DNA of 28,444 bases from assembly GCA_043737175.1 (NCBI GenBank), contig JAYTBF010000043.1, positions 1-28,444 on the forward strand, given 5' to 3'. Within the stretch, counting starts at the first letter, position 1; each line of letters begins with the position of its first letter. The position numbers and the translations under genes are program-made. Source of the DNA: Burkholderiales bacterium (GTDB lineage: Bacteria; Pseudomonadota; Gammaproteobacteria; Burkholderiales; Usitatibacteraceae). Positions 2,352-14,335 of this stretch are shown here, one piece after another. The notes beneath the pieces were generated by a model. The model was given only the letters and a program-made list of their open reading frames with translations. It searched no databases and was not told where the DNA came from.

Positions 2352-3137
2352 TTATCGGGTGGTTGCTTCGCGGGTTTGCGGCGCATCCGGGAAACGCCGC
2401 CGCAACTGGGACACATAACCGGCCTCACTGTTACGATCACCCATTGCGCGGGAAATTTTAGCGCCGAGCAACAGGCCGTTGGCGTCCGGCTCCCGCACCA
2501 TCGCGCTAAATCTTGCAAATTGTGCATCGGCTTCTTTATAACGCGTCTGCGAAAACGCTATATCGGCCAACTCGTACAACGCCGGCGCCAATTGCGGATC
2601 GCGCACCAATGCCGCACGCAAATTGGTTTCGGCCGTGGCGTTGTCACCAGCGCGCCGGGCGCAAACACCGGCATTGTAAAGCGCGCGCTCGGGTGTCGAG
2701 TACAAAGGATTGCGCAATGCCTTTGTGAAGTATGGCAACGCGCGTTTTGGATCCTGCCGTTCACAAATAAACCAACCGTAATTGTTGAGTGTGAAGGAGT
2801 CGTTCGGGGCAAGTCGGACCGCCCGCTCAAACGCCGCCTGCGCCTTTTCGTTGTCACGCAATTCCATATAGATCAGCGCCACCATGTTGTGCGCCGGCGC
2901 ATATTTTGCGTCCGCGGCTACCGCCTGTTGTGCCGCTTCCAATGAAGTTGCCAGGCGACCAAGCCGAAAATACTCGGCCGACCGTTCGGTATGAATTTGT
3001 GCGCGTTGTGTTGGCTCAACCTTGGTGGCCATATCCGCGGTCTTGGTTTCGGTGGTGGTGGTGGTCGAACAACCACTCATAAGCACCACGGTGCCCAACA
3101 ATACCGCCACAACCAATCCAACATTTACTCTATTCAT
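2352..3137 (-). CDS. pilW: Type IV pilus biogenesis/stability TPR lipoprotein PilW/PilF
   Basis: Lipobox LMSGC, TPR repeats, LNNYGWFIC and ALRNPLY motifs; conserved position after rlmN. Confidence 0.9.
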   Translation of the reverse strand: MNRVNVGLVVAVLLGTVVLMSGCSTTTTTETKTADMATKVEPTQRAQIHTERSAEYFRLGRLATSLEAAQQAVAADAKYAPAHNMVALIYMELRDNEKAQAAFERAVRLAPNDSFTLNNYGWFICERQDPKRALPYFTKALRNPLYSTPERALYNAGVCARRAGDNATAETNLRAALVRDPQLAPALYELADIAFSQTRYKEADAQFARFSAMVREPDANGLLLGAKISRAMGDRNSEAGYVSQLRRRFPDAPQTREATTR

Positions 3138-3179
3138 ATCGGTCTCCTCGGGAATTGCGTCGGTTTGATCACAATGATG

Positions 3180-4292
3180 TCACGTGGTCGCACGGATGGC
3201 GATGGTTTTGGTTCGCTGTGATTTGTCGACTACCTGCCCGGCCAACTGTCCACAGGCCGCATCAATATCATCACCGCGTGTTTTACGGATGGTGACGATC
3301 AATCCCGCCTCTTGTAATACCTTGCGAAAGCGGTGAATGGCGTTGTTACTGGAGCGCGCATACGGCGCGTTCGGGAACGGATTCCACGGAATCAAATTAA
3401 TCTTGCACTCGATTTGATCGACCAGTGCAACCAACTCATGGGCTTGTTGCACCGAGTCGTTGACCCCATCCAACATCACATATTCGAAGGTGACAAAATC
3501 GCGCGGCGCCGCCGTCAAATAATCCTTGATGGTTTCGAATAATTCGGCGAGCGGATATTTTTGATTAATCGGCACCAGCACATCACGCAACGCATCATTC
3601 GGTGCGTGCAGCGAGACTGCGAGTGCCACTGGGCAGCGATCTTTCAAGCGTTTCAGATTCGGCACAATACCGGACGTTGACAAGGTCACGCGGCGGCGCG
3701 ACAGGCCATAAGCGTGATCATCGAGCATGATGTCCATGGCATTGGTGACCGGGTCAAAATTGGCCAGTGGTTCACCCATGCCCATCATCACCACATTGCT
3801 GACAATACGTTCATTTTTGGGGTTGTAGCCCATCGCTTTATTGGCCCACCACAACTGGCCGATGATTTCGGCAGCGGATAGGTTGCGATTAAAGCCTTGT
3901 TTGCCGGTGGAACAGAAGGTGCAATCGAGTGCACAACCGACCTGTGATGACACACACAAGGTGCCACGATCGTCTTCGGGAATAAAAACAACTTCGATGC
4001 CGTTGCCGGTACCAACATCCAGCAACCATTTGCGCGTGCCGTCTTTTGACGCCTGTTCGGTCATCAGCTTGGGCGCGGCAATCACCGCCACCCCGGGCAA
4101 CTTTTCGCGCAGTGACTTCGCCAGATCCGTCATGGCGTCGAATTGATCAACTCCAAAATGATGAATCCAGCGAAATACCTGCTTGGCGCGAAACGGCTTT
4201 TCCCCCATATCGGCAAAAAACGTCGTCATCTCTGGCAAAGTCATGCCCATCAGATTCGGTTTGTTGCCCAATACGCTTTGAGGAACTGCCAT
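3180..4292 (-). CDS. rlmN: 23S rRNA m2A2503 / tRNA m2A37 radical SAM methyltransferase
   Basis: [13 protein letters not shown] (CxxxCxxC), [14 protein letters not shown]. Confidence 0.97.
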
Positions 4293-9911: not shown

Positions 9912-10508
9912 ATGATTCGTCGCCAACCATTTTGCGTTCAATGCCCAGCGCAGCCGCATGCGGATGGCACCACTTTCCGTAATGCGCGCGTTTTGATTCT
10001 CACGGCGGCCGTTTTTCTATCGGGATGTGCCACACAAAAATTCAGCCAAGAGCACATTCCTGTGCCATTAAAAGTGCCGGGCGGGCATGCCGCCACCATG
10101 GAAACCGCCGCAGCGGGCAACATGATGTTCCAGTGCCTCGCAAAAATTGATGGGATTGGTTTTGACTGGTCGCTGACTGACATTGACGCCAGCCTAAAAA
10201 ACCGCGACGGCAAAGTCGTCGGACGTTTTGTCGGACCGCCCGCGACTTGGCAGGCAAGTGATGGCTCCATATTGACCGCGACACGACTGGCCACAGCACC
10301 GGCCATAAATCAACCGTCCGGCGCCCTGCCGCTGGCGTTATACCAAGCCAAACCGGCGACCGGGAGGGGCGTGATGACCGCAGTCACATATATCCAGCAG
10401 CTTGCCACCATCGGTGGCACTGCACCAGCAGGGTGTGATCAAACTCTGCTCAACAAAAAACACAAAGTGGCTTTTCAATCCGACTTTATTTTTTATAAAG
10501 CAAATTAA
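9912..10508 (+). CDS. DUF3455-like lipoprotein
   Basis: Lipobox FLSGC; VPGGH...FQC...GPPATW...DGS...VTYIQ...GGTAP...C...DFIFY matches my recollection of DUF3455, which often lies near ECF/RskA pairs. ATG 9912 chosen because it lies after the upstream stop. Confidence 0.75.
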   Translation: MIRRQPFCVQCPAQPHADGTTFRNARVLILTAAVFLSGCATQKFSQEHIPVPLKVPGGHAATMETAAAGNMMFQCLAKIDGIGFDWSLTDIDASLKNRDGKVVGRFVGPPATWQASDGSILTATRLATAPAINQPSGALPLALYQAKPATGRGVMTAVTYIQQLATIGGTAPAGCDQTLLNKKHKVAFQSDFIFYKAN

Positions 10509-11383
10509 TTTGTTTTGTTGCGGCGAATGCGTTCCAACACCCCGCATATTTGTTCGGCCGCATCGATCAACCGTGGACCGGGTCGCATGACCCAATCGGC
10601 TGTCAGCGAAATAATTTGTCCGGACTGTTCGGCACGTGAACCGGCATAGGCCGAATTATCGCGGGAAGGGTCTGCCGCCGCGTGCGGCTTGCCACCATAC
10701 AGCACCACCTGTGGATTTTTAACCAGCAACATTTCGCGCGACGGCGTAAACACCAATGGTGCGACGTCGGCAAAAACATTTACTCCGCCGCAGATTCGTA
10801 GTACCTCGGAAATAAAATGCCGGCCATTAATCGTCATCAGCGGCACCCGGCTGATTTCAAAAAAAACCGGCAAAGATGCGGAGTTTGAAAATTGGTTTTG
10901 CAGCTTGCTGAAGCGTCGCTCGAAATCTGCTGCAGCGGACTCGGCTTGCATCCCGGAACCCCCCCATTGACCAATCTTGCGCAATACCAACGGCACATCC
11001 ACCATTGTTGTGACCGTGATCGATTCAACACGTATACCCAACGCCTGCAGGCGCTGAATATCATTTAAGCGGGTACCACTGGCCCACACCAGCACCAAGT
11101 CCGGCTTGACCGCCAATAACGCCTCAATATTGATGCCACTCGCGTCCGCAACCTGCGGGATTTTTTTCGCCTGTAGTGGAAAGTCGCTAAACGCTGAACT
11201 GGCGACCAGCTTGCCGCCCGCCCCCGCCGCAAACACCAGCTCGGTGAGCGCCGGTGAGGTGCTGACAATACGTTGCGCAGGCGCGGCAGTGGCCACACCT
11301 GATGCATGCGCCACGACCGCAAACCATGCCAGCCCAACAATGGCCATCAGCAACCGGCTAACCACCCTAACCAATACGGCCAT
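10505..11383 (-). CDS. btuF: Cobalamin-binding periplasmic protein (BtuF-like)
   Basis: Signal peptide, RIVSTSPALTELVFAAG, EALLAVKPDLVL, CGGVNVFAD, MRPGPRLIDAAEQIC. Confidence 0.8.
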   Translation of the reverse strand: MAVLVRVVSRLLMAIVGLAWFAVVAHASGVATAAPAQRIVSTSPALTELVFAAGAGGKLVASSAFSDFPLQAKKIPQVADASGINIEALLAVKPDLVLVWASGTRLNDIQRLQALGIRVESITVTTMVDVPLVLRKIGQWGGSGMQAESAAADFERRFSKLQNQFSNSASLPVFFEISRVPLMTINGRHFISEVLRICGGVNVFADVAPLVFTPSREMLLVKNPQVVLYGGKPHAAADPSRDNSAYAGSRAEQSGQIISLTADWVMRPGPRLIDAAEQICGVLERIRRNKTN

Positions 11384-11385
11384 TT

Positions 11386-12315
11386 TTAAGCCGCGGGTTT
11401 CGTGGACGCGGTGGTCGCTTGAAAGCGCGCCGCCAACAACAGGCGCTGTTCGTAGGCGGCACGGGCGATGGCAACATCTTCCAGAAAATACGGCAACTCT
11501 TCGAGTGTGATCGCCTGTGCGGCGTCGACCAATGATTTTTTCGGCAGCGGGTGCATATCCACCAACAACATATTGGCACCGGCAATCACGCCTTGTGCCG
11601 CCACGTGGAAAATATCCAAAATGCCGTCCGGTGATGCGCCACGCGCACCAACCGAGTGGGAGGGATCAACACAAACCGGCATACGCGTAAGGCGATGCAC
11701 CACCGGCACATGGCCAAAATCAACCAAATTGCGATGTGGGTCACCCAAATTCGTTTTCATGCCGCGCAGACCAAACATGATTTTGGTGTTGCCTTCGGAG
11801 GCGCAATATTCCGCGGCCATGAGTGATTCATCGAGAGTGATACCAAAACCACGTTTGAGCAAAATCGGAAATTCATTCTGGCGGCCAACGGCTTTCAACA
11901 ACTCAAAATTTTGCGTGTTGCGCGTGCCGATTTGCAACATCACACCGGTTGGGCTTCCGGTCTGATGCAAGGCCTCATTGATTTCATTCAGATGCGCCTC
12001 GCGGGTGATTTCCATGGAGATCACCTTGATGCCATATTTTCCGGCCAGCTCAAACACCCACGGCAAACACTCCCGTCCCATGCCTTGAAACGAATACGGA
12101 CTGGAACGCGGTTTGTACGCTCCCATACGCGCGCACACCTGGCCGTGTATGCGCAAACAGGCAAAGGTGGCCTCAACATATTCACGGGTATCAACGGCGT
12201 TGAGCCCGGCAAACGTGTGCAAATTATGTTGGTTGAAGGTCACACCGTTATAGGTAAAACCAACATCGTGTTCATCGGCCTGGTGGCGGCCGAGTATGCG
12301 TAATTCAATGGCCAT
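11386..12315 (-). CDS. Class I-beta DAHP-synthase-like protein, catalytic barrel only, atypical metal site
   Basis: RMGAYKPRSSPYSFQG, QIGTRNTQNFELLK, LKRG, DPSHSVG motifs. AGLN sits where metal-dependent enzymes have AGPC. Starts 5 nt after the aroG stop. Confidence 0.85.
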   Translation of the reverse strand: MAIELRILGRHQADEHDVGFTYNGVTFNQHNLHTFAGLNAVDTREYVEATFACLRIHGQVCARMGAYKPRSSPYSFQGMGRECLPWVFELAGKYGIKVISMEITREAHLNEINEALHQTGSPTGVMLQIGTRNTQNFELLKAVGRQNEFPILLKRGFGITLDESLMAAEYCASEGNTKIMFGLRGMKTNLGDPHRNLVDFGHVPVVHRLTRMPVCVDPSHSVGARGASPDGILDIFHVAAQGVIAGANMLLVDMHPLPKKSLVDAAQAITLEELPYFLEDVAIARAAYEQRLLLAARFQATTASTKPAA

Positions 12316-12320
12316 GATGG

Positions 12321-13436
12321 TTACTCCACGTTCAGCAAACGACGCTCACGCACCGCTTGCGCCAATTGCCGCAACAATTTTTCGGTGTCGTCCCAATTGA
12401 TGCAGGCATCCGTGACCGACACGCCGTATTGCAACGGTTTGCCGACTTCGATGTCTTGGCGGCCGGCATTCAAATGACTTTCCACCATCACCCCCACCAC
12501 GCGCTGATCACCACTAACAATTTGCGCGGCCACATCGGTCGCCACGTCCATTTGTTTTTGGTATTGTTTGGACGAGTTGGCGTGCGAAAAATCAATCATC
12601 ACCCGTTGCGCGAGCCCCGCCTTGGCCAATTCCTGACACGCCGAATCGACATTCACCGCATCGTAGTTGGGCGTTTTACCACCGCGCAAAATAATGTGGC
12701 AGTCTTCGTTTCCGGCAGTGGAAACAATCGCCGAATGCCCGCCTTTGGTGACCGACAAAAAGTGATGTGGTGCCGACGAAGCCTTGATGGCATCGACAGC
12801 GATTTTGATATTGCCGTCGGTGCCGTTTTTGAAGCCAACCGGACAAGACAAGCCGGACGCCAACTGGCGGTGGGATTGTGATTCGGTGGTGCGCGCACCA
12901 ATAGCGCCCCAGGCAATCATGTCGGCAAAATATTGCGGCGAAATCAAATCCAAATATTCTGTACCGGCCGCCAGACCAAGCTCATTAATATCCAACAGTA
13001 ACTTGCGCGCCAGCCGTAGGCCCTTATTGATATCGTGGCTCTCATCCATATCCGGATCGTTGATGTAGCCCTTCCAACCGACCGTGGTACGGGGCTTTTC
13101 GAAATAAACCCGCATCACAATAGTCAAATCCGGCTCAAGGCTGATCCGTAGCGCCTGTAATCGGCGGGCATATTCCATGGCCGCGTCGTAATCATGAATC
13201 GAGCACGGGCCGATGATGACCAGCAATCGTGAATCACCACGATGCATGATGCGATGAATTTCTTCACGGGCGCGAAACACCGTCGCCGAAGCCTGTTCAC
13301 TCAATGGAAATTCACGCATTAAATGCGCCGGCGGCGTTAATTCCTTGATGCCACGAATTCGTAAGTCATCGGTGTTATAGGGCATGGCAGATTCCGGTTG
13401 CGGTTTGGATACGACGGTCAGATTGGCTTTGGTCAT
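12321..13436 (-). CDS. aroG: Class I-alpha 3-deoxy-7-phosphoheptulonate synthase
   Basis: GPCSIHD, MRVYFEKPRTTVGWKG, IGARTTESQ, ASGLSCPVGFKN, DFSHAN, MVESHL, TDACI; all four metal ligands present. Confidence 0.95.
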   Translation of the reverse strand: MTKANLTVVSKPQPESAMPYNTDDLRIRGIKELTPPAHLMREFPLSEQASATVFRAREEIHRIMHRGDSRLLVIIGPCSIHDYDAAMEYARRLQALRISLEPDLTIVMRVYFEKPRTTVGWKGYINDPDMDESHDINKGLRLARKLLLDINELGLAAGTEYLDLISPQYFADMIAWGAIGARTTESQSHRQLASGLSCPVGFKNGTDGNIKIAVDAIKASSAPHHFLSVTKGGHSAIVSTAGNEDCHIILRGGKTPNYDAVNVDSACQELAKAGLAQRVMIDFSHANSSKQYQKQMDVATDVAAQIVSGDQRVVGVMVESHLNAGRQDIEVGKPLQYGVSVTDACINWDDTEKLLRQLAQAVRERRLLNVE

Positions 13437-13511
13437 TTTAGTCGCCTTGCGGGTAAAGGTAGGGGCACATCAAATCGAACGCCGGCCAGCGGTGAAACAA
13501 TGCTGGTCGGC

Positions 13512-13547
13512 AAAAAAAAACCGCCGAATTTTCGTTCGGCGGTTTTT
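13512..13547 (-). terminator. Intrinsic terminator (attenuator 3:4 hairpin) in the aroG leader
   Basis: Minus strand AAAAACCGCCGAA-cgaaaa-TTCGGCGGTTTTTTTTT: perfect stem followed by a 9-U tract, 75 nt upstream of the aroG ATG. Confidence 0.88.
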
Positions 13548-13575
13548 AGAATTTTGGTTAGTTTTCAAAAGCAAA

Positions 13576-13644
13576 CTAACCCTTCTCCGCCGGTGGCATG
13601 GAAAAGGACCAGAAATAAAAATAGGAATTGGCGCGAATGTTCAT
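13576..13644 (-). CDS. Putative attenuator leader peptide, MNIRANSYFYFWSFSMPPAEKG (22 aa)
   Basis: Manual translation ATG(13644)-TAG(13576); six aromatic codons within residues 8-14; overlaps alternative hairpins ahead of the terminator. Confidence 0.82.
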   Translation of the reverse strand: MNIRANSYFYFWSFSMPPAEKG

Positions 13645-13651
13645 GGAACAA

Positions 13652-13679
13652 ATAGTAACAGGGGAATAAGGGGTGTGAA
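13652..13679 (-). promoter_or_regulatory. Candidate sigma70 promoter of the aroG leader
   Basis: Minus strand TTCACA-N16-TACTAT with an extended TG; the -10 ends 7 nt before the leader ATG. Confidence 0.55.
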
Positions 13680-13786: not shown

Positions 13787-14335
13787 TTACGAGGCAGTGG
13801 CTTTAAAAATCAGTGCCGCACCATTGTTACACCAGCGTTCACGGGTTGGTGCCGGACCGTCCTTGAAGATATGACCATGATGGCCACCGCAGCGGGCGCA
13901 GTGATATTCGGTGCGCGGCAAAATCAGTTTGAAATCGGTTTTTTTATTGAATACACCCGGCAGGGTCGTAAAAAAACTCGGCCAGCCGGTGCCACTTTCA
14001 AATTTCATTGCCGAGCTAAACACCGCCAGATCACAACCGGCGCAATGAAACAAACCCTGGCGTTTTTCGTCATTGAGCGGGCTGCTTCCCCCGCGTTCGG
14101 TACCTTCGTTGCGTAGCACCTCAAACTGCGCGGGTGTCAGGCGTTTTTTCCATTCGTTATCGGCCAGTTCCAACTTGTCTATTTTTGGCTTTGGTCCGTT
14201 GGCCTGATCAAGCGCAATTTTGACCATTGAAGCGTCCGGCGCCTCCGGTCCGCGACGTTGTGCAAATACACCCTTAAACATGGTTAGTCCTCCTGCAGTG
14301 CCAAATAGTGCGGTGAGAAATGTACGTCGTTTCAT
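13787..14335 (-). CDS. msrB: Peptide-methionine (R)-S-oxide reductase with twin-arginine signal
   Basis: MKRRTFL Tat-like motif, LRNEGTE, CAGC/CARC zinc pairs, GTGWPSF, GHHGHIF, RWCNNG. Confidence 0.93.
   Translation of the reverse strand: MKRRTFLTALFGTAGGLTMFKGVFAQRRGPEAPDASMVKIALDQANGPKPKIDKLELADNEWKKRLTPAQFEVLRNEGTERGGSSPLNDEKRQGLFHCAGCDLAVFSSAMKFESGTGWPSFFTTLPGVFNKKTDFKLILPRTEYHCARCGGHHGHIFKDGPAPTRERWCNNGAALIFKATAS

Follow-up and report, generated by a model that had tools for sequence, protein, structure and literature searches.

A putative ribosome-stalling attenuator with a mixed Tyr, Phe and Trp leader precedes the DAHP synthase gene aroG in Burkholderiales

We analyzed a 28,444-nucleotide window (contig JAYTBF010000043.1, positions 1–28,444, assembly GCA_043737175.1) from a Burkholderiales bacterium of the Usitatibacteraceae. 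All window features described below lie on the minus strand. Reading along this strand, the msrB stop at 13787 is followed by a promoter-like site, a leader ATG at 13644 with its TAG at 13578–13576, a hairpin with a U9 tract at 13547–13512, and the aroG ATG at 13436. The aroG gene (12321–13436) encodes a class I-alpha DAHP synthase of 371 aa and is the presumed target of the attenuator. It is single-copy in the genus, and its product passes the NCBIfam equivalog NF006723 with 597.9 bits versus a cut-off of 568.

An I-beta-like DAHP-synthase paralogue of 309 aa (11386–12315), lies 5 nt behind aroG, is probably co-transcribed with it, and would hence fall under the same attenuator. This paralogue scores 208 bits against a cut-off of 335 and passes none of the curated cut-offs for DAHP or KDO8P synthases. 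Of the 22 same-genus loci surveyed, 18 have it downstream of aroG; it was detected in none of the other families sampled, and a PF00793 search did not find it in the complete genome G005. Within the genus, the paralogue is more conserved than AroG (86–95% versus 78–96% identity), and it may have a function other than plain DAHP synthesis. Beginning 2 nt past its stop is a gene for a BtuF-like periplasmic binding protein (10505–11383), which may be translationally coupled to the attenuated aroG operon, an odd partnership; an Rfam search found no cobalamin riboswitch within the window. On the other side of the leader, msrB (13787–14335) runs on the same strand and ends 143 nt upstream of the leader. 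A twin-arginine-like motif (MKRRTFLTALFG...) in an N-terminal extension of the encoded protein suggests an exported methionine-sulfoxide reductase B. As msrB itself lacks a convincing terminator, that of the aroG attenuator probably ends msrB transcripts too.

The leader ORF (13576–13644) consists of 22 codons plus TAG and encodes MNIRANSYFYFWSFSMPPAEKG. Its codons 8–14, TAT TTT TAT TTC TGG TCC TTT (Y F Y F W S F; 13603–13623), form the putative regulatory run, in which six of seven consecutive codons specify Tyr, Phe or Trp (two Tyr, three Phe, and one Trp). The first-pass annotation had proposed this ORF together with a 1:2 helix, an antiterminator, an enclosed hairpin and a terminator; the ORF proved correct to the base, and the four RNA elements were exact in both letters and coordinates. 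We scanned both strands of the 2.73-Mb assembly for a short ATG ORF with at least five of seven aromatic residues, followed by a terminator. The scan returned the leader ORF (6/7 aromatic) and one doubtful 5/7 case, and no further convincing aromatic leader ORF, for example before pheA or trpE, was found in the whole assembly. Outside the window, a short ORF on contig C134 of the same genome (G000; 3062–3249, minus strand) contains seven His in ten residues (…RRPHHHHLRHHHP…) and is followed by a terminator-like hairpin, making it a candidate his-operon leader.

The RNA downstream of the codon run can be drawn in mutually exclusive helices. Helix 1:2, the predicted anti-antiterminator (13580–13608), pairs UCCUUUUCC (13608–13600) with GGAGAAGGG (13588–13580) and has an inner GCC:GGC; its core, as first noted, joins CCUUUUCC (13607–13600) to GGAGAAGG (13588–13581). 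This helix is worth −14.0 kcal/mol, and its 5′ strand takes in the last Phe codon. The antiterminator 2:3 (13537–13592) pairs CGGCGG (13592–13587) with CCGCCG (13542–13537) and is extended, beyond the earlier claim, by 4 bp between AGAA (13586–13583) and UUCU (13551–13548). The whole segment folds at −22.5 kcal/mol and shares CCGCCG with the 5′ arm of the terminator. Enclosed within it, hairpin B (13556–13581) forms between GGUUAGUUU (13581–13573) and AAACUAACC (13564–13556) and carries the leader stop UAG (13578–13576) in its 5′ arm; in relatives, hairpin B is present, with variable sequence. The intrinsic terminator 3:4 (13512–13547) has a 13-bp stem (A5-CCGCCGAA / UUCGGCGG-U5), a 6-nt loop and the U9 tract, is worth −18.2 kcal/mol, and ends 75 nt upstream of the aroG ATG. 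A simple terminator scanner called no terminator at the locus, likely because the A5/U5 stem extension consumes part of the U tail it seeks. Straight after the U tract, a second imperfect hairpin (13480–13511; GCCGACCAGC...GCUGGCCGGC) is found, lacking a U run. In relatives, this spacer contains another hairpin (CCAGUC...GACUGG), near the aroG ribosome-binding site, and the spacer hairpin could have an effect on translation or mRNA stability.

Left free, the RNA folds at −46.2 kcal/mol (z = −4.6 versus 200 shuffles) into a structure that holds the 1:2 helix, hairpin B and the terminator. We masked the mRNA up to 10 nt past the A-site Tyr, Phe or Trp codon and folded the RNA as made, before the 3′ arm of the terminator emerges. 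With the ribosome placed at each of the six aromatic codons, the modelled nascent RNA goes to the antiterminator. When the ribosome sits at the stop codon, the terminator alone can form in the model, and with no ribosome, helix 1:2 forms first and the terminator follows. The same outcome under ribosome masking was obtained for most relatives; six sequences with an internal mismatch in the terminator stem were judged from folds of isolated segments. For the complete RNA at equilibrium, the terminator remains the lowest-energy state whether or not a ribosome is stalled, so that the choice of structure has to be made kinetically, as it is in trp and phe attenuation.

A predicted sigma-70 promoter (13652–13679) is the only promoter-like site between 13300 and 14000. 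It consists of a −35 element TTCACA (13679–13674), a 16-nt spacer and a −10 element TACTAT (13657–13652) with a TG just 5′ of it. The −10 element ends 7 nt before the leader ATG, and no Shine–Dalgarno (SD) sequence was found upstream of this ATG; both features would fit leaderless translation of the leader ORF, which we consider likely. Without an SD sequence, the leader would have to be translated through leaderless or unstructured-leader initiation. Just 4 of the 103 collected leaders have an SD-like 4-mer. In 40 of the 103 distinct leaders, spread over several families, a TANNNT hexamer, mostly with an extended −10 TG, ends 6–8 nt before the leader ATG, against a background of 0–2 per nearby position. 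In Burkholderia, Paraburkholderia and Janthinobacterium/Oxalobacteraceae (L047, L074, L085, L110, L113, and others), the hexamer lies 25–35 nt upstream of the leader ATG, also without an SD sequence. The aroG-leader family seems to use two promoter layouts, both SD-less. Two relatives (L015 and L143) have GTG starts. Precedents for a leaderless leader ORF are S. meliloti trpL (PMC7298713) and the mycobacterial polycysteine ORFs (bioRxiv 10.1101/834739). No RNA run was found to contain the window. When four metatranscriptomes were compared with the same-genus locus L014, few short contigs were recovered, one of which spans the terminator, with DNA carry-over possible. One L014 contig, for which carry-over is also possible, runs 93 nt upstream of the leader ATG; if it derives from RNA, some transcripts start further upstream.

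Starting from AroG, we surveyed loci in 22 same-genus genomes and in eight other families. At 20 of the 22 same-genus loci, a 20–25-codon ORF with an aromatic run is followed by a CCGCC...GGCGG-U terminator 30–119 nt before aroG, and the other two loci are cut by contig ends. The leader ORF of relatives measures 20–28 codons overall. Comparison of aroG upstream regions among relatives, as the first-pass annotation had recommended, found the aromatic codon runs conserved and compensatory changes in all three helices. The msrB gene was detected upstream at 15 of the 22 same-genus loci and in none of the other families of the order. Because the leader and terminator accompany aroG whatever gene is upstream, the element belongs to aroG and not to msrB. 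In genome G003 (L002 / L063; contig JANPNU010000184.1, bases 1–156), AroG is 96% identical to that of the window. The upstream DNA at this locus diverges ~90 nt before the aroG ATG, at the start of the contig, and has neither terminator nor leader; this divergence is either an assembly chimera at the contig end or a real rearrangement that deleted the attenuator.

We then extended the search with a covariance model, R1, built from 23 leaders. The model scores 114.8 bits on the window, a value obtained by construction, as the window is among the 23 training sequences. In an even sample of 151 genomes from the order, R1 matches 32, each with one copy, covering 26 of 96 genera. Twenty-nine of the 30 best matches outside the contigs of the window's genome are directly upstream of aroG, all 29 with an in-frame aromatic ORF. 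The remaining match (L060, in genome G083) was rejected as an ordinary gene-end terminator, with no aromatic ORF and no aroG, and two weak matches in the window's own genome (L061 and L062) were set aside as plain gene-end terminators lacking the same two features. A sample of the rest of the class yielded three more matches, one of them a confirmed aroG leader. At E ≤ 0.001, R1 gave 95 matches in 98 loci, and the arrangement is conserved in ~100 other genomes. A scan of named genomes placed the leader at 56 of the 80 closest AroG loci, with hosts in Burkholderia, Paraburkholderia, Caballeronia, Cupriavidus, Achromobacter, Bordetella, Pandoraea, Janthinobacterium, and Massilia.

The layout of these leaders points to constraint on the RNA. 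GGCGG (region 2, inside the ORF), CCGCC (region 3), and GGCG with a U run (region 4) follow one another in 85 of 103 non-identical leaders. The region-2 GGCGG falls in frame 2 in 70 leaders and in frame 0 in 14, with a single leader having it in frame 1; among same-genus leaders, one type reads it as -AE- and another as -GG-. The motif is invariant while its reading frame differs, which argues for a constraint on the RNA and not on the peptide. Between the end of the last aromatic codon and GGCGG lie a median of 11 nt (range 5–17). This spacing fits a ribosome footprint, such that a stalled ribosome would just uncover region 2.

Covariation was examined in an alignment of 95 sequences fitted to helix 1:2 and the terminator; the antiterminator played no part in making it. 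In helix 1:2, all six modelled pairs have changed on both sides, with 84% of cells paired. In the terminator, 99.1% of cells are paired, and two pairs exchange A-U for G-C in a compensatory manner (65 vs 25). Together, these two helices give a covariation score of 0.371, versus 0.210 when shuffled (none of 500 reaches the observed value) and at most 0.158 with slid partners, in controls that ignore relatedness. The five core pairs of the antiterminator are 88–100% G-C. Its three flanking pairs are 65.3% paired, versus 54.9% when shuffled (maximum 59.9%) and 17–41% when slid, again in controls that ignore relatedness; the flanks hold 35 double changes, and U-A, C-G, and U-G types all occur. The bases before GGCGG, after CCGCC, and before the 3′-arm GGCG covary as U/A/U (47) or C/G/C (12). 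The inner antiterminator helix takes a different form by lineage (AGAAA:UUUCU, UGAAA:UUUCA, GGAA:UUCC, CUGGAAA:UUUCCAG, GUCGA:UCGAC, CGAGA:UCUCG), and its strands pair better with their own partners than with swapped ones (−5.69 versus −4.70 kcal/mol; none of 2000 permutations as low, uncorrected for relatedness). All three helices thus appear to covary, which we take as support for the switch and not as proof, given that shared ancestry remains in the controls.

From these sequence comparisons, the element is very probably a classical ribosome-stalling transcription attenuator controlling aroG. The association with aroG and the covariation of the helices bear out the original proposal of a four-region leader-peptide attenuator in place of an msrB terminator alone. 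In the mechanism we propose, the transcript would begin at the leader AUG or no more than two bases from it, and a ribosome would translate the 22 codons alongside ongoing transcription of the leader by RNA polymerase. A shortage of charged Phe-, Tyr-, or perhaps Trp-tRNA would stall the ribosome in YFYFWSF, where it would cover region 1 and free GGCGG-AGAA (region 2). Ahead of synthesis of the terminator's 3′ arm, the freed region 2 would pair with region 3 (UUCU...CCGCC), allowing the polymerase to continue into aroG. Under good supply, the ribosome would reach the UAG inside hairpin B and block region 2, leaving the CCGCC...GGCGG-U9 terminator to form. An untranslated leader would also lead to termination, with helix 1:2 sequestering region 2. 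We infer both the translation of the leader and the rise in readthrough upon starvation, the folds themselves being computed.

The first-pass annotation had further claimed that one leader senses all three aromatic pools. Its Phe and Tyr part is the better supported, these codons being universal to the family (at least two Phe codons in 103 of 103 leaders, Tyr in 102), and its Trp part is less so, with Trp in only 63 of the 103; joint sensing of Phe, Tyr, and Trp is, on codon content, a reasonable hypothesis. Phe makes up 19% of leader residues, Tyr 10%, and Trp 3.1%, and the leader codons vary synonymously within the genus (TTT/TTC, TAT/TAC). The same attenuator could effectively be a sensor of Phe, or of Phe and Tyr, to which the single Trp codon adds little and in which three pools are not integrated. 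We regard this as a real possibility, if not the probable case: Trp is absent from the run in 40 of the 103 leaders and has been lost twice inside the genus (TGG to GGG and TGG to CGG), AroG scores as the Phe-sensitive AroG equivalog, and transcription of C. glutamicum aroR-aroF, with its Phe-Tyr-Phe motif, is raised by Phe limitation only (PMC11802643). However, 21 of 23 genus leaders retain their single Trp codon, mostly at a fixed place (FYFW), and a 3.1% share with presence in 63 of 103 leaders is far above chance for a rare residue in a 7-codon run. AroG is also the only class I-alpha DAHP synthase, so a Trp input would be physiologically sensible. The retention of so rare a residue argues for selection and makes a Trp input to the attenuator plausible here.

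The suggestion that attenuation acts in place of TyrR/TrpR-type repression fits the gene content. TrpR (PF01371), the TyrR HTH domain (PF18024), and class II DAHP synthase (PF01474) were not found in the window's own genome or in three 99–100% complete genomes of the genus, and control genomes responded to the same searches. In those four genomes, PF00793 identified only aroG, a kdsA-sized gene, and the I-beta-like paralogue (the latter missing in G005). The PF00793 and PF01474 results leave AroG as the one standard (class I-alpha) entry enzyme.

A broader picture can be put forward tentatively. In much of the Betaproteobacteria, a single leaderless mini-gene, transcribed from the first base of its AUG, may govern the first aromatic step without a repressor. 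The RNA would be loaded with a 70S ribosome as soon as it appears, and that ribosome would sense the charging of Phe, Tyr, and Trp tRNAs jointly; the terminated ~133-nt RNA would be released as a free small leaderless mRNA/sRNA, as for S. meliloti trpL. That this terminated leader transcript, or its peptide, also acts in trans like rnTrpL/peTrpL of Sinorhizobium meliloti strikes us as improbable. The S. meliloti attenuator RNA starts at the trpL ATG and works as both an sRNA and a small leaderless mRNA (PMC7298713); the transcript predicted here would have the same form as rnTrpL, and the leader peptides of the genus share a C-terminal P-x-AEKG motif. The RNA helices encoded by these C-terminal codons, however, account for their conservation; GGCGG is kept while the frame changes. 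Least credible of all, and in our view very nearly dismissible, is that the hairpin is a mere msrB terminator with a fortuitous aromatic ORF and an aroG promoter downstream: msrB does precede the leader by 143 nt in the same orientation and lacks a convincing terminator, and one RNA-library contig on L014 does span the msrB-leader spacer, but the ORF and terminator stand before aroG in families with other neighbours and at same-genus loci without detected msrB, no promoter-like site lies between 13512 and 13436, and covariation backs helices 1:2 and 2:3, for which a plain terminator would have no need. Stopping msrB readthrough may well be an extra role of the terminator in the aroG attenuator, not a rival one.

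An attenuator of this kind would explain how bacteria seemingly without TrpR and TyrR set the level of a single class I-alpha DAHP synthase. It would add to the classical attenuators a widespread family, found among others in Burkholderia, Cupriavidus, Bordetella, and many uncultured Burkholderiales, which merits an Rfam model and small-ORF annotation. Metabolic engineering of Cupriavidus or Burkholderia for aromatic production could target the aroG leader or use it as a tool. Its conserved layout, SD-less and with a −10 element beside the ATG, offers a natural system to study the coupling of leaderless initiation and transcription in Proteobacteria.

No Rfam family reached its gathering score anywhere in the window or in the loci of eight relatives. 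Phe_leader (RF01859) scored 22.7 bits against a gathering score of 55 (E = 0.47), a terminator-driven match that does not make the element a member, and at relaxed thresholds STnc240 gave 28.5 of 55 bits, also sub-threshold and terminator-driven. The first-pass annotation knew of no characterized betaproteobacterial aroG example, and our full-text literature search likewise found none; nor did the full texts searched describe any proteobacterial aroG leader, an earlier prediction in subscription journals being possible. The aroG aromatic-leader family seems to be widespread and uncatalogued in Rfam and searchable papers. Its mechanism is classical, and DAHP-synthase attenuators have already been described in other phyla.

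Among these, C. glutamicum aroR-aroF is the only experimentally tested DAHP-synthase attenuator found in the literature searched. There, Phe limitation acted and Tyr availability did not (Neshat et al. 2014, as summarized in PMC11802643 and PMC4046766). Compared by description only, it resembles the present element in placing a leader-peptide attenuator with mixed Phe and Tyr codons before a DAHP synthase gene, and differs in its actinobacterial host and its Phe-Tyr-Phe motif without Trp. Upstream of Acholeplasma aroF, the predicted uORFC-13-1 motif (PMC8632094) similarly combines a uORF with Phe codons and a terminator before a DAHP synthase gene; it belongs to Mollicutes, has a ribosome-binding site and another sequence motif, and is a prediction only. 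Leader-peptide control has also been suggested for Shewanella aroF/aroH (PMC2659441). S. meliloti trpL (PMC7298713) shares with the aroG leader a proteobacterial host, a transcript running from the leader ATG (predicted here), and the lack of an operon repressor, whereas it contains Trp codons only, controls trpE(G), and has trans roles that were shown for trpL (PMC7298713). Enterobacterial pheL-pheA (and pheM-pheST) likewise has a leader peptide with an aromatic codon run, four regions, an intrinsic terminator, and a kinetic choice between 2:3 and 3:4, and in pheL-pheA, as here, the U-rich Phe codons themselves form region 1. Unlike the Phe-only pheL, to which it is not a sequence relative, the aroG leader mixes Tyr, Phe, and Trp codons and has no SD sequence, and its target is the first common step, catalyzed by DAHP synthase, whereas that of pheL-pheA is the Phe branch.
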